From a virus (Duplodnaviria; Caudoviricetes), in the IMG/VR virus record IMGVR_UViG_3300030330_005139: a DNA stretch of 64,000 bases. The stretch is one strand, 5' to 3'. Of the stretch, positions 2,446 through 18,810 are shown in pieces. The notes below the pieces were generated by a model. The model searched no databases and was not told the DNA's origin. It saw nothing but the letters and a program-made list of their open reading frames with translations. Each line of letters starts with the position of its first letter. The stretch's first letter is position 1. A program made the translations under genes and the position numbers.

Positions 2446-3318
2446 ATGTCCAAACTTTCTGAATCAATTGATGATGCTTACTTCACTTGTCCAGAGGATG
2501 TTGAGTTTGTTCATGACAAGCTGAGGGAGTCTGATTGGTTGGGTGGAAGCATTCTGGAACCTTGTGCTGGTGCTGGTCGTCTGGTAAAGGGACTTGAGAA
2601 CGTTCAGATGTGGGACCTCAATCAATATGATGTCCCTCTCGATCGTGTGGGTAATTTTCTTGACCAACCCGCAAATGAGAGATTTGATCTTGTTCTAACT
2701 AATCCTCCCTTTGGGTGGTTGGGTCATCTTGCCGGAGACATCTTCAACAAGGCAACTCAGTTCGCTGATCGGATTGCAATCATTCTTCCTCAATGTTATA
2801 GGAAGGTTCAGAGAATTGATAAGATCAATGAGATGTGGCACCCTGTTGGTGACTTCGATCTTCCAAATCAAGAGTACATTCTCCCTGATGGTCAACGTAA
2901 GTTTGTAAGAACTTGCTTCCAGATGTGGGAGAAACGTGATTACAAACGCAAAAAGTTTGGAAACACATCTTACCATGAGTTCTTCCGTCAAGTTCCCAAA
3001 GATCAGGCAGAATATTATCTCAGAACACAAGGATCCTCAGCTGGAAGAATTCTTGAAGGTCTCAAGTATCCTGATGGTCGTGAGTACAACTCCAACTCAG
3101 GTCGATGGATGGCTGGGGGTAAGGAAACCATCCTTAAATATGATTGGACCAAGGTTGCAAGATTTGCATCTGGTGCCCAATCCATTGGTCTCCATGACAT
3201 TGCTTGGGGGCTTCGATCTCCTAACACTGAAGAATACCTAATCCATGGTATAATGTATGATCTAATTAACGGTGTTTACGATCAACAACCTGAAAACAAC
3301 CTCATGAAATACTTCTGA
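2446..3318 (+). CDS. DNA adenine N6-methyltransferase (gamma-type motif order)
   Basis: Motif X YFT, SAM motif ILEPCAGAG, then catalytic NPPF. ATG at 2446. Confidence 0.85.
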   Translation: MSKLSESIDDAYFTCPEDVEFVHDKLRESDWLGGSILEPCAGAGRLVKGLENVQMWDLNQYDVPLDRVGNFLDQPANERFDLVLTNPPFGWLGHLAGDIFNKATQFADRIAIILPQCYRKVQRIDKINEMWHPVGDFDLPNQEYILPDGQRKFVRTCFQMWEKRDYKRKKFGNTSYHEFFRQVPKDQAEYYLRTQGSSAGRILEGLKYPDGREYNSNSGRWMAGGKETILKYDWTKVARFASGAQSIGLHDIAWGLRSPNTEEYLIHGIMYDLINGVYDQQPENNLMKYF

Positions 3319-3320
3319 TA

Positions 3321-4172
3321 ATGACACTCGAAATCAACAAAACCCATTTGATGTCTAACATTGATGGATGTGAACAGATGGACCCAGAGTCTGTCAATCT
3401 GGTCGTCACTTCTCCACCTTATGATAACCTGAGAGAGTACAATGACTCCTCCACCTGGAACTTTGATGTGTTCAAGCAGGTTGCTGATGGACTCATTCGT
3501 GTTCTGAAACCAGGTGGTGTCATTGCATGGAATGTTGCTGATGCCATCGTTGAACTTCACAAGAAGCAAGGAACTTCAAGGACTGGTTCTTCGTTTCGTC
3601 AGTGTCTTTACTTCCAAGAACAGGGACTGAACTTCCATGACCTGATCATTTACGAGAAACCAGCTGCTCGTTTCTCTGCTTCTGCCACTGGTCTTCGTTA
3701 CTCTGATGTGTTTGAGTATGTCTTCATCATGACGAAGGGGAAACCAGACCACATGCAAGTGATTGCGGATAAGAAGAACAAAGGGTTTGGAACAACCTTC
3801 ACCAAAGATGGTGGAAGAAACAAGGATGGAACCCGTAATCGTGATGCTGAGAAGACACAGATTGCTGTGAAGGAGTTTGGTGTTCGTCACAACATCTGGA
3901 GGATCAACAACTCATGTGGAGCTCACGGGATGCCTAAGGAGGCTTACGAACACCCAGCTCTGATGCCACAGGAACTGGCAGATGACCTGATCCGTTCTTA
4001 CTCTCGTGAAGGTGACCTGGTGTTGGATCCGTTCATGGGTTCCGGAACAACAGCAAGAATGGCTTTCAAGAACAATCGTGATTACATTGGGTTTGAGATT
4101 GACCCCACTTACCATGAGTTGTGTGTCAATCTCAACGCTTCGGAATGTAACTCCGTGTTTGACAAACTCTAA
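3321..4172 (+). CDS. DNA N4-cytosine/N6-adenine methyltransferase (beta class)
   Basis: N-terminal VTSPPY, HPA..P and C-terminal VLDPFMGSGTT. Confidence 0.9.
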   Translation: MTLEINKTHLMSNIDGCEQMDPESVNLVVTSPPYDNLREYNDSSTWNFDVFKQVADGLIRVLKPGGVIAWNVADAIVELHKKQGTSRTGSSFRQCLYFQEQGLNFHDLIIYEKPAARFSASATGLRYSDVFEYVFIMTKGKPDHMQVIADKKNKGFGTTFTKDGGRNKDGTRNRDAEKTQIAVKEFGVRHNIWRINNSCGAHGMPKEAYEHPALMPQELADDLIRSYSREGDLVLDPFMGSGTTARMAFKNNRDYIGFEIDPTYHELCVNLNASECNSVFDKL

Positions 4173-4187
4173 AACATCTGTTAGTAT
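4159..4187 (+). promoter_or_regulatory. sigma70-type early promoter for the sigma factor gene
   Basis: TTGACA (4159-4164), 17 bp spacer, TGn-TAGTAT (4182-4187). Confidence 0.7.
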
Positions 4188-4209
4188 AAAACTCCATTAC
4201 ACATCACCC

Positions 4210-4911
4210 ATGCAATTCGCCAAACAAATTGACCACGTCGAAGAGATCGAACTTTGTAAGAAGGCACAACAAGGAGGCGATGATGGCGAGAGGGCTAAGA
4301 GTATAGTGGTCAATGCCAATCTTGGTTTGGTTGCTCACATTGCAAAGAAGAACTATTACAAGAACGATCAATATTCCTTTGACGATCTCTTTCAGGAGGG
4401 AGTATTTGGTCTTGTTCGAGCAATCGAAAAGTTCGATCCAACAGAGGGTTGTCGGTTCTCAACTTATTCTTATTACTGGATCTATGCTTTTATCAGCAGG
4501 TTCAAGAATAACAACAGGGGAAGCATCCGTCTTCCTCTTCATGTCACTGACAAGATGAGGACTCTTGAGAAGAAGGACAAGGTTGCCTTTGAGGAATACA
4601 AGTCCAAGATTCCTGTGGCAGTCTCTCTGAATAAGATGATTAGTGACTCCACTTCTATCTTGGACTTGGTTTCTGATGAAGATGAGACAAATATTCTTGA
4701 TCGAATTGACAATGAACTTCTGATGGAACAGATCAAAGAACTTCTTTCTGAGAAAGAGTTTGATGTTCTTTGTAATCGTTATGGTCTTGAGGGACGAGAA
4801 CAGAAGACTCATCGTGAATGTGCCAAGATTTATGGAGTCTCTCACACAGCAGTTTATCTGATTGAGAAGAAGGCTTTTGAGAAAATTAGGAAAACATTTG
4901 CCACTAAATAA
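4210..4911 (+). CDS. RNA polymerase sigma70-family factor (RpoD/RpoS-like, not gp55)
   Basis: Region 2 NLGLVAHIAKK..DDLFQEGVFGLVRAIEKFDP..RFSTYSYYWI, SIRLP, and region 4 HTH. Start placed at ATG 4210, downstream of the promoter. Confidence 0.9.
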   Translation: MQFAKQIDHVEEIELCKKAQQGGDDGERAKSIVVNANLGLVAHIAKKNYYKNDQYSFDDLFQEGVFGLVRAIEKFDPTEGCRFSTYSYYWIYAFISRFKNNNRGSIRLPLHVTDKMRTLEKKDKVAFEEYKSKIPVAVSLNKMISDSTSILDLVSDEDETNILDRIDNELLMEQIKELLSEKEFDVLCNRYGLEGREQKTHRECAKIYGVSHTAVYLIEKKAFEKIRKTFATK

Positions 4912-4938: not shown

Positions 4939-6183
4939 GTGATGAAAAGTTTTCTGAATTTCTTCTCCGAAGCAAGGGTCACCCGTGCTGCTCAAGAAGC
5001 GAAGAGGAAGGGTCTGACTTATCAGGATGGTTATTGGGTAGACAGATCTGGTAAGAGGGTCGCAAGAACAGAGAATGGGGAGCTCAAGATTCTCTCAGCG
5101 AGAGAGGCTGCACAGGAGGAGGAACCCACCCAAGAGAGAAAACCAGAATCTGAAGGTGAGGTTCAACAGCAGCGTCCTGGTGGAGAGGTTGAGCAACCCA
5201 AAGAGAAGAGAAAGGGGAAAGATATGACCATTGTGTTTGGGAGATTTAACCCTCCCACAATTGGACACAAGTTGGTTCTTGATAAGGCTTCATCTCTCCC
5301 TGGAGACTATGTGGTTTATCCTTCGAGATCGAATGATCCTCAGAAGAATCCTCTTGAACCCGCTGAGAAGACGGAAATCATGAAGAAGATGTTCCCTCAG
5401 CATTCTGACTCCATTGTCAATGATGAAAGCATCAGAACAATCTTTGATGCTCTTAAAGTTGCAGATGAAGAGGGTTACACAAATGTAAATATCGTTGTTG
5501 GTTCTGACAGGATCTCCGAGTTTGATTCATTGGCTCAGAAGTATAACGGAGAGATGTATAACTTCGAAGAGATCAACACGATCTCTGCTGGTGAAAGAGA
5601 TGAGGAAGAGGCTGGTGTTGGTGGAATGTCAGCATCTAAGATGAGAAAGGCTGCAGCTGAAGATGACTTTGAGTCTTTCAGGCAAGGAACTCCAGAAGAG
5701 ATGGAGGACAAAGATGTTAGGTCTTTGATGAATCTTCTGAGAAAGAGAATGAATGTTACAGAAGGTTGGAACTTGTGGGAGATTGCTCCTAAGTTTGATT
5801 GGAAAAACCTTCGTGAGAATTATGTAACTGGTAAGATTTTTAATCTGGATCAGATTGTGGAGAGTCTGAAGACAGGTTTGATTGGAAAGGTAATCAGAAG
5901 AGGAACTAATTATCTGATCTGTGTGACAGAAGAGGATGTTATGTTCAAGTCTTGGATTCGTGATCTTAAAGAGTACACTGAAGTCAAGATGGATCGTAAG
6001 ATGAGAACAAAGGATAAGCCAAACACTCTTGAGGGAACTGGTGGTTACTTTAAGAACGCAGCTGCAATTACTCCTGGGTTTGAAAATGGTGATAATACTA
6101 ACCTTCAACCAGGTGGTAAGCCTTACAAAGGTTATCAGAAGCAAACAGTCAAGGAATTCATAAATAAGTTTAGGAAAAAGTAA
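4939..6183 (+). CDS. Cytidylyltransferase/NMNAT-like HIGH-superfamily nucleotidyltransferase, probably packaged
   Basis: FGRFNPPTIGH (HxGH), VVGSDR and MSASKMR motifs. N-terminal MKSFLNFFSE. Late promoter CTAAATA upstream. Confidence 0.85.
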   Translation: MMKSFLNFFSEARVTRAAQEAKRKGLTYQDGYWVDRSGKRVARTENGELKILSAREAAQEEEPTQERKPESEGEVQQQRPGGEVEQPKEKRKGKDMTIVFGRFNPPTIGHKLVLDKASSLPGDYVVYPSRSNDPQKNPLEPAEKTEIMKKMFPQHSDSIVNDESIRTIFDALKVADEEGYTNVNIVVGSDRISEFDSLAQKYNGEMYNFEEINTISAGERDEEEAGVGGMSASKMRKAAAEDDFESFRQGTPEEMEDKDVRSLMNLLRKRMNVTEGWNLWEIAPKFDWKNLRENYVTGKIFNLDQIVESLKTGLIGKVIRRGTNYLICVTEEDVMFKSWIRDLKEYTEVKMDRKMRTKDKPNTLEGTGGYFKNAAAITPGFENGDNTNLQPGGKPYKGYQKQTVKEFINKFRKK

Positions 6184-16625: not shown

Positions 16626-17234
16626 ATGAAATTACCTAATATTAAAACTGGAACGGTCGTTGTCGGAGCTTTGGCATCTTTCTTTATGATTACGGAGCAC
16701 ATGGCAGTTAGATCATACAAACCATCTCCAGCAAAACAACAAGTAGTAGAAGAATCACAACAAGAACCACAACCACGAACCTTAAGACTCCAAGGAGCCT
16801 CTCCAACAGAACAGGAAGTCCTTGAGTTTATTACTGAAATTGGAATCACTGATAAGAATGCAGTTGCAACCATCCTTGGAAACATTAAGCAGGAATCTAA
16901 GTTTGAAACTCGTATCTGTGAAGGTGGAAAGAGAACTGGATATTCAGGATGTCACAGAGGAGGATTTGGTCTCATTCAGTGGACAACACCAGGGAGATAT
17001 AAAGGACTTGGTAAGTATGCCAGTTCAAGAAATGCTGATCCCAACGACCTTCAAATTCAGTTAGAATACATGTTGACGGAGAGACCTTGGAAGAGAGCTC
17101 TTGGTTCATTCAAAACACCTGGTAAATCCATTGACAGTTACATGAGATCCGCTCACGTTTGGTTGGGTTGGGGAGTTCACGGAGAGAGAACCAATTACGC
17201 TCACGATTACGCGAACCGACTTTATTGGGGTTGA
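16626..17234 (+). CDS. Phage tail-lysozyme-like muramidase with N-terminal hydrophobic anchor
   Basis: ATILGNIKQES, GFGLIQWT, QLEYM motifs. Confidence 0.8.
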   Translation: MKLPNIKTGTVVVGALASFFMITEHMAVRSYKPSPAKQQVVEESQQEPQPRTLRLQGASPTEQEVLEFITEIGITDKNAVATILGNIKQESKFETRICEGGKRTGYSGCHRGGFGLIQWTTPGRYKGLGKYASSRNADPNDLQIQLEYMLTERPWKRALGSFKTPGKSIDSYMRSAHVWLGWGVHGERTNYAHDYANRLYWG

Positions 17235-17258
17235 CACCGTCCTCACAGGTGTTATAAT
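17231..17258 (+). promoter_or_regulatory. Strong sigma70 promoter driving the tRNA/ncRNA cluster
   Basis: TTGACA, 16 bp spacer, TGn-TATAAT. Confidence 0.8.
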
Positions 17259-17261
17259 TTA

Positions 17262-17336
17262 AGGGTTGAGAGGGAAGACCACTCAACTGCGGTGACTCCC
17301 TTGGTGGTTCAGGGTCAGCGGCGATAGGAACCACCA
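17262..17336 (+). ncRNA. Structured RNA (hairpin plus probable pseudoknot) upstream of tRNA-Arg
   Basis: GGTTGAG/CTCAACT hairpin, TGGTGGTTC/GAACCACCA 9-bp stem, and TGACTCCCT~AGGGTCA crossing pairing. Confidence 0.5.
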
Positions 17337-17339
17337 CAT

Positions 17340-17413
<74 letters not shown>

Positions 17414-17451
17414 TTGGTAACTCTGTTACCTTATTGTTTACTTTGATCATT

Positions 17452-17748
17452 ATGTCGGTTCTCAAATCTGTGGATCTAAACAACGTTATCCGATCCGCAG
17501 CACTGGTTGTTGTTGGTCTCCCTCTCACTGGTGGATTGGCTCTCGGTGTTTTGGCTAATCTCCCTGAAGGTGTGACTCGATCCTCGCGAGCTCAGGAGAG
17601 TCTGAAAGCAGATCTCACTCGTCCCTGTCTTGATTATGTCCTGTCTAAGAATGACAGCAAGTTGGAGCGAGAAGCTAAGAATGACATCGATGATGTCCTT
17701 GGCGGTCAGGCTAACTATACTGAAGCCTGTCGCTGGACTCTGGGTTGA
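17452..17748 (+). CDS. Hypothetical membrane-anchored protein inside the tRNA cluster
   Basis: Hydrophobic N-terminus, two Cys, terminator downstream. Confidence 0.65.
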   Translation: MSVLKSVDLNNVIRSAALVVVGLPLTGGLALGVLANLPEGVTRSSRAQESLKADLTRPCLDYVLSKNDSKLEREAKNDIDDVLGGQANYTEACRWTLG

Positions 17749-17753
17749 GTCAT

Positions 17754-17772
17754 AGCCCCTTCGGGGGCTTTT
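17754..17772 (+). terminator. Intrinsic terminator or processing hairpin
   Basis: AGCCCC-TTCG-GGGGCT followed by TTT. Confidence 0.75.
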
Positions 17773-17846
17773 GCCTTCTTAGCTCAGTTGGATAGAGCAG
17801 GGCTTTTGTAAAGCTCAGGTCGTCGGTTCAAGTCCGTCAGAAGGCT
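17773..17846 (+). tRNA. tRNA-Thr(TGT)
   Basis: GCCTTCT/AGAAGGC acceptor stem, loop TT-TGT-AA. Confidence 0.93.
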
Positions 17847-17848
17847 TG

Positions 17849-17915
17849 AAGTGTCGGGGGTTTCGTGCCTGTGAGGAGTCATAACTCTGAGGCTGTGTAA
17901 ATCCTCCATCACTCT
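17849..17915 (+). ncRNA. Long interrupted hairpin between tRNA-Thr and tRNA-Gly
   Basis: Nested stems AGTG/CACT, GGGGGTTT/AAATCCTC, GCCT/AGGC, GGAGT/ACTCT. Confidence 0.4.
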
Positions 17916-17987
17916 GCGGGTGTAGTTCAGTGGTAGAACGTCAGCCTTCCAAGCTGAATGTCGTCGGTTCGAATCCGATCTCCCGCT
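17916..17987 (+). tRNA. tRNA-Gly(TCC)
   Basis: GCGGGTG/CTCCCGC acceptor stem (one U-U pair), TCAGC-CT-TCC-AA-GCTGA anticodon arm. Confidence 0.93.
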
Positions 17988-17988
17988 T

Positions 17989-18212
17989 GTCCAAGAGGTG
18001 ATGCTCAAGGACGTTCTGGACTGGGGTTCGATTCCCCACACTTCCACTCATGGGGGTGTCCTGGTTTCGACAGGGCGTTACAAGTGTGACTGATGACGGG
18101 ACAACACAACAGATGCTAACAACATCGTTTCTTTCAACCGCAGCCTCGTAGCTGCCTGAATGGTTGACCAGGTGAGATGAGCCGGGTTCCTCAATCATCC
18201 ACTGGACCTGGA
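17989..18212 (+). ncRNA. ssrA: Circularly permuted two-piece tmRNA, cyanobacterial type
   Basis: The T-arm and 3' acceptor strand (TGGGG-TTCGATT-CCCCA-CACTTCC-A, 18022-18046) precede the 5' end GGGGGTG...GGTTTCGAC (18052). G3:U pair present. Tag ORF 18115-18159 reads ANNIVSFNRSLVAA*. Outer ends are approximate. Confidence 0.92.
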
Positions 18213-18225
18213 AGGGTCCTCCCAA

Positions 18226-18297
18226 TGCCCTGTAGCACAACGGCAGTGCAGGAAGCTGTTAACTTCAAGGTTACTGGTTCGAATCCAGTCGGGGCAG
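18226..18297 (+). tRNA. tRNA-Asn(GTT)
   Basis: TGCCCTG/CGGGGCA acceptor stem, GAAG-CT-GTT-AA-CTTC anticodon arm. Confidence 0.92.
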
Positions 18298-18299
18298 TA

Positions 18300-18428
18300 A
18301 ACGGATTGGCGACATCCGTGCTCACATCTCCAGGAGAAAAAAGAACTGGAACACCAACCCATGTGAGAGAGAGGTGGGACCCCTCTTGAGCCCTTCAGTG
18401 GTAATCTGCAGGTTATCACTGTCGCCTA
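18300..18428 (+). ncRNA. manA-like structured RNA between tRNAs
   Basis: Stems CGGAT/ATCCG, CTCACAT/ATGTGAG, TCCAG/CTGGA and CAGTGGTAATC/GGTTATCACTG. Loop GGCGAC can pair with GTCGCC. manA RNAs are known beside cyanophage tRNAs; the family call is from memory. Confidence 0.55.
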
Positions 18429-18501
18429 GCCCGAATAGCTCAGCGGTAGTAGCGTCTCCCTTACAAGGAGAATGTCGGCGGTTCGATCCCGTCTTCGGGC
18501 A
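18429..18501 (+). tRNA. tRNA-Val(TAC)
   Basis: GCCCGAA/TTCGGGC acceptor stem, TCTCC-CT-TAC-AA-GGAGA anticodon arm. Confidence 0.95.
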
Positions 18502-18517
18502 TTTCACACAAAGACTT

Positions 18518-18748
18518 ATGTGGAGAATCTGGTGTTACGCACTTGGTAAAAAGGAAGGTCGTAACAAGAAAGACGCAGATCGAATTGCTCTCCTAAGAAC
18601 CTTCATTCTTTTCGCATATCTCATCACTAATTGTTTCATTGTCGCTGGTGTTATCAGACACTGGAACACTGAAGGTAAGACATTGATTTACATGTGTCAG
18701 GAAGAAAGAAACATGAGAAGGTCTTGTACATTAGTGTCTGAAAACTAA
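18518..18748 (+). CDS. Small membrane protein
   Basis: MWRIWCYALG..ADRIA..TNCFIVAGVIRHW. ATG 18518. Confidence 0.7.
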   Translation: MWRIWCYALGKKEGRNKKDADRIALLRTFILFAYLITNCFIVAGVIRHWNTEGKTLIYMCQEERNMRRSCTLVSEN

Positions 18749-18810
18749 CACATAAGATTTATTGTTGATATTGATTCTCTTATAATTAGTTGGGCAATAA
18801 AGATTTTTGT

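Follow-up and report, generated by a model that had tools for sequence, protein, structure and literature searches.

We analyzed a 64,000-nt stretch of a tailed virus (Caudoviricetes; IMG/VR record IMGVR_UViG_3300030330_005139), hereafter called the window, in which an initial annotation made from the letters alone had placed a phage-encoded, circularly permuted two-piece transfer-messenger RNA (tmRNA) gene. The locus is indeed an intact, phage-borne, circularly permuted tmRNA gene of the cyanobacterial type. ARAGORN called a permuted 'tmRNA*' on the plus strand (17957-18250) with the tag ANNIVSFNRSLVAA*, in line with the tag frame already proposed. The suggested check with the Rfam cyanobacterial permuted model RF01851 (cyano_tmRNA) gave an end-to-end match over 17965-18219 (129.4 bits, E 8e-35; gathering cut-off 70 bits), and the merged permuted model RF04321 scored 107.2 bits (gathering cut-off 47 bits). 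The gene thus lies where it had been predicted, but the predicted span of 17989-18212 was wrong: the tmRNA unit comprises 17988-18225 (238 nt) and occupies the entire gap between a tRNA-Gly and a tRNA-Asn gene (Table 1). The spans of both programs are too long, as both overrun into tRNA-Gly and that of ARAGORN also into tRNA-Asn. The permuted order is evident from the T arm and the 3' acceptor strand, which precede the 5' acceptor strand and are separated from it by a short segment. The sequence bears out the initial description of an acceptor half that comes first, a 5-nt CTCAT segment (18047-18051) and a 5' half starting at G18052, and likewise the absence of an encoded CCA. The elements of alanine identity named there are also present, namely G18054:U18043, corresponding to G3:U70, and the discriminator A18046.

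The structure was examined by covariation in a MAFFT alignment of 58 phage and host sequences, with column shuffles and pairing partners slid by 1-3 columns as controls. The canonical structure is paired in 91.3% of cells, compared with 78.4% in the shuffles and 42-52% with slid partners, and changes on both sides occur in 31/50 pairs. Both the acceptor stem (7 bp) and the T stem are paired in 100% of cells, the latter with two covarying pairs, and G3:U70, the discriminator A, the T loop and the D-loop-like UGGUUUCGAC are invariant in 58/58 sequences. The first inter-piece helix of the initial annotation, CAGGGCGT/ACGTTCTG (18011-18018 with 18071-18078), turned out to be the core of helix P2 and covaries; the remainder of P2 is formed by 18009/18081, 18001-18004/18084-18087 and 17997-17999/18089-18091. 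Over its whole length (helices 1-3), P2 is paired in 96-100% of cells, and 9/16 pairs change on both sides. For the 3' pseudoknot, compensatory changes were found in 5/6 pairs of stem 1 (91% of cells paired) and in 5/5 pairs of stem 2 (94%). Stem 2 illustrates this already within the clade of the window, where it reads GAUGA/UCAUC in the window, GGUAA/UUACC in the related contigs L001 and L007 and GGUCA/UGACC in L050. The terminal hairpin (helix 9) shows both-side changes in 5/6 pairs and has a host-like CUGGAAGG loop region. The variable 3' region was aligned imperfectly by MAFFT, which is reflected in the count for the tag-hairpin helix (55% paired). Altogether, covariation supports the acceptor stem, the T stem, P2 and the 3' pseudoknot.

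A second inter-piece pairing of the initial annotation (GTCCA..TGAT / ATCA..TGGAC; 17989-17993/18203-18207 and 17999-18002/18194-18197) had to be rejected: it is paired in 52% of cells, and 452/500 shuffles as well as the slid controls equal it. Its segments are parts of other elements, with ATCA being the 3' strand of pseudoknot stem 2, TGAT lying within the P2 extension and TGGAC forming the 5' strand of the terminal hairpin. In addition, the GTYCA motif is kept in phage clades with entirely different 3' hairpins (e.g. GGGGGUG...CCCC). Because GTCCA and TGGAC are both invariant in the four-member window clade, a clade-specific GTCCA/TGGAC pairing is conceivable at most, and nothing in the alignment speaks for it. 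Pairing of CAAGAG(G) with CUCUUG in the 3' tail, as seen in the L006 type, was dropped, being not conserved in L004, L068 and the window. Minimum free energy (MFE) folding and cofolding of the two pieces, a method that cannot model the pseudoknot, gave non-canonical structures apart from the T arm, the acceptor stem and the terminal hairpin.

Table 1 Features of the tmRNA locus and the surrounding tRNA cluster (window positions).
Feature	Position	Strand	Remarks and source
Predicted sigma-70 promoter	17231-17258	+	Consensus scan: TTGACA, 16 nt, TATAAT, upstream TG; 12/12 match
tRNA-Arg	17339-17414		ARAGORN
tRNA-Thr	17773-17846		ARAGORN
tRNA-Gly (UCC)	17916-17987	+	ARAGORN; 1-nt gap from its 3' end to the tmRNA leader
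Acceptor piece	17988-18046	+	59 nt before CCA addition; Rfam alignment, sequence, covariation
Leader of acceptor piece, U-GUCCAAGAGG	starts 17988	+	
P2, 3' strand	17997-18018	+	In acceptor piece
T arm	18022-18038	+	T stem 18022-18026 with 18034-18038
3' acceptor strand CACUUCC	18039-18045	+	
Discriminator A	18046	+	End of acceptor piece; CCA not encoded
Intervening segment CTCAT (CUCAU)	18047-18051	+	5 nt; predicted removal during maturation
Coding piece	18052-18225	+	174 nt; starts at G18052
5' acceptor strand GGGGGUG	18052-18058	+	In coding piece
D-loop-like UGGUUUCGAC	after 5' acceptor strand		In coding piece
P2, 5' strand	18071-18091	+	Followed by shortened region without PK1
Tag reading frame	18115-18159	+	GCU resume codon at 18115 to UGA 18157-18159; encodes ANNIVSFNRSLVAA; ARAGORN
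H-type pseudoknot	18166-18199	+	Stem 1 18166-18169/18185-18188 plus 18171-18172/18182-18183; stem 2 18176-18180/18195-18199
Terminal hairpin GGACCU-GGAA-GGGUCC	18204-18219	+	Stem 18204-18209/18214-18219; Rfam alignment, covariation, MFE fold
6-nt tail UCCCAA	to 18225		End of coding piece, directly before tRNA-Asn; no U run
tRNA-Asn (GUU)	18226-18297	+	ARAGORN, Rfam
tRNA-Val	18429-18501		ARAGORN

For comparison, we collected 68 IMG/VR viral contigs with a permuted tRNA-like-domain signature, 44 loci of which carry cyano-type tags, and at least 120 host loci from Prochlorococcus, Synechococcus, Cyanobium and Vulcanococcus, of which 119 were used for tags and flanks. The host scan required exact conserved motifs, so that the sample covers the less divergent hosts and phages, and some of the 'viral' contigs could be host fragments, L020 and L037 being the least phage-like. 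The window tag, ANNIVSFNRSLVAA, has 14 aa and ends in LVAA, two residues shorter than the 16-aa host tag. Among the matches listed, host tags (16-18 aa) end in AA in 119/119 cases and in APVAA in 115; the two main types are ANKIVSFSRQTAPVAA (68 loci) and ANNIVRFSRQ(A/T)APVAA (39 loci). Phage tags vary in both length and C-terminus, with ends such as VAV, ALV, ATA, QTV and VTA. Across the A-N-N/K-I-V-x-F tag start of 17 distinct phage sequences, the six conserved residues show no variation at codon positions 1 and 2, and position 3 varies in every one of them; between the window and L007, four of the five codon differences are synonymous and one is nonsynonymous. Because this substitution pattern is codon-periodic, as in coding sequence, the tag is probably translated, and the pattern argues against a pure SmpB decoy. 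Several phage loci (L032, which is S-CAM3-like, L006, L005, L012 and relatives) contain an insertion of ~20-30 nt that repeats the resume-codon context AUAGAUGCAAAC; it yields tags with an N-terminal extension (ANTSD.AANNIV...) and two candidate GC(N) resume codons.

The window gene has much in common with the two-piece tmRNA of the hosts (Prochlorococcus, marine Synechococcus, Cyanobium; RF01851, RF04321): the permuted order, the 7-bp acceptor stem with G3:U70, the discriminator A without CCA, an identical T loop and UGGUUUCGAC, P2, an ANNIV.F-type tag start, the 3' pseudoknot and a terminal hairpin with a GGAA loop. However, its best identity to any host is 66% among the matches listed, compared with 95% (L001/L056) and ~83% (L007, L050) to the members of its own clade. 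The maximum-likelihood tree places the 30 sampled hosts close together in one cluster and the phage sequences outside it on long branches, with 100/100 support and a branch of 0.41 for the window clade; one branch can split hosts from phages, although with weak support (78/0). Judged by identity and tree, the window tmRNA is not a recent capture from any sampled host, and the long phage branch may reflect an old acquisition or fast phage evolution. A fragment of a tmRNA gene serving as phage attachment site (attP) was ruled out, since the gene is complete, at most 66% identical to the sampled hosts and on a long phage-only branch, and since its neighbours are tRNAs, plastocyanin and transaldolase.

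The differences from the hosts concern the ends of the gene and the region between P2 and the tag. The host acceptor piece opens with a hairpin (e.g. GUCCGG-N4-CCGGAC) before UAGGUGA, whereas the window has only the leader U-GUCCAAGAGG before GUGA. Between P2 and the resume codon, hosts carry the pseudoknot PK1 (GCC/GGU plus GCUC/GAGC), which is kept in the hairpin-type phage tmRNAs with a compensatory GCUU/AAGC and is deleted in the window. In many hosts the terminal hairpin is followed by a U run; the window lacks this run. Among the matches listed, the intervening segment, 5 nt in the window, is of similar length (6 nt) in Prochlorococcus hosts and measures about 12-16 nt in marine Synechococcus hosts. 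Two loci stood out in the tree and the scans. L037 (727-995) combines a host-type T stem (AGCGG/CCGCU) and PK1 with a phage-like tag, ANNIVSFRRTAVAV, and tRNA flanks; its tmRNA groups with the hosts on a long branch and could be a separate later acquisition or a recombinant. L122 (CALRJS020000007.1), labelled as a metagenome-assembled genome of Sphingobacterium thalpophilum, has a cyano-type permuted tmRNA with a picocyanobacterial tag motif and is probably a mis-binned cyanobacterial contig.

The direct tRNA flanks of the window gene also set it apart from the hosts, where a tRNA next to the tmRNA was found in 0/119 loci among the matches listed. In phages, a tRNA abuts the 5' end of the tmRNA in 18/44 loci, and in 20/44 a tRNA starts no more than 70 nt after the stop codon. 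The flanking tRNAs differ by clade (upstream Gly, Thr, Arg or Ala; downstream Asn, Arg, Ala, Leu, Pro or Asp). With respect to the 5' end, a leader of the form GTYCAAGAGG is preceded by a TAnTATATA-type box 4-5 nt upstream in 22/44 loci, by an ATAAATA-type box in 3/44 and, in the window clade, by a tRNA discriminator base 0-1 nt upstream (5/44). The remaining loci have a host-like hairpin at the 5' end, with a tRNA-Thr within a few nucleotides in 13/44, while one contig (1/44) ends before any tRNA becomes visible. Since the leader can stand behind a promoter-like box or behind a tRNA, it most simply signals the 5' end of the mature acceptor piece (17988/17989). In the window clade this end would then be made by tRNA 3'-end processing instead of transcription initiation. 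The TAnTATATA box of the 22 loci (e.g. L006, L031, L032, L004, L010, L020) often reads TGCTAnTATATA, and the ATAAATA box of the three loci resembles a T4-type late promoter; from the upstream sequences, the transcription class of phage tmRNAs may differ between lineages. A 14-nt leader pattern tried on metagenome contigs was unspecific: of 119 loci only one, L050, which was already in the set, was a true tmRNA, and no new clade members were obtained.

The genome in the window is that of a T4-like cyanomyovirus. It has a G+C content of ~42%, carries nearly all genes on one strand and encodes NrdA, NrdB, an endolysin-like protein, transaldolase, a nucleotide-sugar epimerase, a gp5-like baseplate hub, plastocyanin, a sigma-factor-like protein and a cytidylyltransferase. 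Closest to it among sequenced phages are the Synechococcus phages S-H68, RN05-S, RB11-B, S-B43 and S-T4 (~78% DNA identity over conserved genes), and the nearest IMG/VR record (G001, 36.9 kb) has the same tmRNA (132 bits). In RB11-B (L311), a 207-nt gap (2976-3182) lies between tRNA-Thr/tRNA-Ala and tRNA-Asn, in which ARAGORN found no tmRNA; it opens with ATG and, by eye, resembles a small open reading frame (ORF). As a side observation, the sigma-factor-like ORF (4006-4911; phrog_351, E 7e-58) and the cytidylyltransferase (4939-6183; phrog_395, E 3e-96) of the window adjoin each other upstream of the nrd genes.

CCA is encoded by none of the tRNAs read in the cluster. For a phage tRNA cluster, the predicted promoter, which lies some 80 nt before tRNA-Arg, is unusually strong, and it is a candidate promoter of a polycistronic tRNA/tmRNA transcript. 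The transcription unit of the tmRNA is nevertheless uncertain because two terminator-like hairpins (17416-17430 and 17754-17769) separate this promoter from the gene. An Rfam search of 17200-18800 at E up to 1 returned the tmRNA and tRNAs only, with no riboswitch and no other family in the spacers; this includes the longer spacers 17847-17915 and 18298-18428, so that the name 'manA-like' given to one of the longer spacers is not backed by Rfam.

Next to the gene itself, the question arises which partners the RNA would use. As noted in the initial annotation, the window lacks smpB: in a tblastn search with host SmpB, the best match had E 0.31 over 25 aa. SmpB (PF01668) was also absent from three 100%-complete phages carrying this tmRNA type and was present in a host genome. 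Without a phage smpB, host SmpB is required, and the phage RNA, to act as proposed below, must also use host AlaRS, EF-Tu, RNase P, a 3'-processing nuclease and the CCA-adding enzyme.

Based on its identity, architecture, covariation, constrained tag and tRNA flanks, we consider it fairly likely that the phage carries, as part of its tRNA operon, a working version of the two-piece tmRNA (ssrA) of picocyanobacteria. From these features we infer the following course. The gene would be transcribed within a polycistronic tRNA transcript, from which host tRNA-processing enzymes would release both pieces by cleavage at four sites. The acceptor piece would obtain its 5' end at 17988 when the 3' end of tRNA-Gly is processed, and its 3' end by a cut after the discriminator A18046 followed by host CCA addition; RNase P would generate the 5' end of the coding piece at G18052 and, by acting at the 5' end of tRNA-Asn, also its 3' end at 18225. 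The resulting pieces of 59 nt (plus CCA) and 174 nt would be joined by the 7-bp acceptor stem and P2 and charged by host AlaRS via G3:U70 and A73. Together with host SmpB and EF-Tu, the charged tmRNA could then enter stalled ribosomes, where translation would resume at the GCU at 18115, append ANNIVSFNRSLVAA and end at the UGA. This would free the ribosome, and the C-terminal VAA would mark the peptide for host proteases. The likely benefit to the phage would be sustained rescue capacity and recycling of amino acids after host transcription has been shut off and host mRNA degraded. A more specific form of this scenario, which we put forward tentatively and would rate slightly below an even call, describes the gene as a pure tRNA-operon cassette without a promoter, 5' hairpin, PK1 or terminator of its own, all of which would have been lost. 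Its four ends would arise only through RNase P and the processing of tRNA 3' ends, acting on its tRNA-like domain, tRNA-Gly and tRNA-Asn, and it would still tag proteins with a phage-specific 14-aa tag.

Several observations weigh against a functional tmRNA at this locus. The 5' hairpin of the host acceptor piece is lost, and PK1 is gone in the window and in all 'leader-type' phage tmRNAs through a 9-nt deletion, with which the GCUC/GAGC stem has lost its 5' strand and the GGU partner of PK1 is missing as well. In Escherichia coli, PK1 is the pseudoknot most tied to function. PK1 is, however, typical rather than defining, as there are other reduced tmRNAs without pseudoknots. The assignment of the promoter is uncertain, as outlined above, and 19/44 phage tags have no terminal Ala-Ala, although the window tag itself ends in VAA; judged by these ends, the phage tmRNA family may not always mark proteins for degradation. 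Finally, the gene is missing at the equivalent site in close relatives such as RB11-B, and for this reason it is an accessory, dispensable gene in this phage group.

The loss of PK1 and of the 5' hairpin, together with the dependence on host SmpB, would also fit an RNA that binds host SmpB, EF-Tu or AlaRS, tags poorly and thereby damps trans-translation of the host. A precedent for such a sponge was proposed for the tmRNA of mycobacteriophage DS6A, which consists of the tRNA-like domain (TLD) only (PMC4131195). The window RNA is, however, no TLD-only decoy of this type, since it keeps the whole coding piece under constraint, including tag frame, pseudoknot and terminal hairpin. The complete tag frame is kept with codon-periodic substitutions, and compensatory changes maintain the 3' pseudoknot and the terminal hairpin, neither of which a decoy needs. 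The roles suggested in the initial annotation (ribosome rescue supplied by the phage, action against nucleases or biased proteolysis) are plausible, and the coding-type constraint on the tag favours real trans-translation; we regard inhibition of the host system as very improbable.

A different emphasis would be a phage tmRNA that is active in trans-translation but serves mainly to compete with that of the host and to attach another tag, altering the choice of adaptor or protease for rescued host or phage peptides or the speed of their degradation. In favour of such re-programming, the 14-aa phage tag lacks the 'Q(A/T)AP' segment of the near-invariant host tags, phage tags are diverse in length and C-terminus, and the conserved part of the tag is under coding constraint. 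The window tag, however, retains its VAA end, so that a changed fate is not evident for this phage, and re-programming differs from the rescue function preferred here in emphasis only; as an explanation in its own right, we consider it rather unlikely. In keeping with the action against host nucleases suggested in the initial annotation, the main benefit could also arise when mRNA interferases or anticodon nucleases of host abortive-infection systems cleave mRNAs or tRNAs, so that ribosomes stall. The genes of tRNA clusters have been proposed to make up for host tRNAs that are cleaved or depleted. The position of the gene within such a cluster and its sporadic spread among related phages would fit an accessory arms-race gene; the same evidence, however, fits a general rescue capacity equally well, and the window contains no linked defence or anti-defence gene, the neighbours being metabolic (plastocyanin, transaldolase). 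Such counter-defence as the chief role therefore seems highly unlikely to us, and a phage-borne rescue RNA drawing on host SmpB is the reading we retain.

As a next step, we related the locus to known systems. The novelty implied by the initial annotation does not hold, as 'Permuted' tmRNAs are already tabulated for five cyanophages, the Synechococcus phages S-CAM1, S-CAM3, S-CRM01 and S-SSM7 and Cyanophage S-SSM6a (Buchholz et al. 2022, PMC9004378, Table S1). In the same study, tmRNAs were detected in 402 of 18,146 phage genomes; 53 of these were two-piece tmRNAs, 50 of them marine or aquatic. The five cyanophages of that table are likewise T4-like cyanomyoviruses of the same host group, with a cyano-type permuted architecture and a tRNA cluster upstream of transaldolase, and the S-CAM type has the GTYCAAGAGG leader and the PK1 deletion in common with the window. 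The window nevertheless represents a separate lineage (~63% identity overall, 82% over a 114-nt core): the S-CAM type begins after a promoter-like TAnTATATA box and has an N-terminally extended tag (ANTSDSAANNIV...), whereas in the window clade only 0-1 nt separate the tmRNA from a preceding tRNA and the tag is short. The GenBank records of these cyanophages leave the tmRNA unannotated or overlaid by a 'hypothetical protein', which agrees with the earlier remark that standard annotation often misses such genes.

Alpha-type two-piece tmRNAs are known from Methylophilales phage Melnitz and Pelagibacter phage HTVC008M, for which ribosome rescue or amino-acid recycling early in infection was proposed (PMC9004378). 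They share with the window the permuted gene, a marine T4-like phage genome and the lack of a reported smpB of their own, but are of alphaproteobacterial type with AND...-type tags, and the Melnitz gene is linked to a glutamine riboswitch, which Rfam did not detect here at E up to 1. Hudson et al. (2014, PMC4131195), who covered 543 bacterial viruses of RefSeq, reported phage ssrA from mycobacteriophages, phage G and DS6A only. The one-piece tmRNAs of mycobacteriophages (Bxz1 group) and the TLD-only tmRNA of DS6A resemble the window gene as phage ssrA without smpB; unlike it, they are non-permuted and belong to phages of actinobacterial hosts, and DS6A has no tag frame, whereas the frame in the window is under coding constraint. 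In huge phages, both tmRNA and SmpB were noted (Al-Shayeb et al. 2020, PMC7162821). Our literature search found no paper on the function of a cyanophage tmRNA. The class is already known, and the window provides a well-supported further example rather than a new kind of system. What seems to be undescribed is modest, namely the seamless fit of the gene between two tRNAs in the window clade, the leader shared after a promoter-like box or a tRNA, and the loss of PK1.

Among primary producers, marine picocyanobacteria are of major importance; tRNA sets and peptide deformylase are means by which their T4-like phages remodel translation in the host. A phage ribosome-rescue RNA is part of this translation toolkit, though unannotated in the deposited cyanophage genomes. 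The comparison with the host genes shows streamlining in the phage, in which PK1, the 5' hairpin and the terminator were lost and the promoter was swapped for a tRNA. As the locus is compact, its ends are predicted to the nucleotide and its tag can be distinguished from that of the host, tagging by a phage tmRNA during infection becomes directly testable. If the tRNA-operon cassette described above holds true, the 14-aa tag could give mass spectrometry a direct marker for trans-translation driven by the phage in infected picocyanobacteria.

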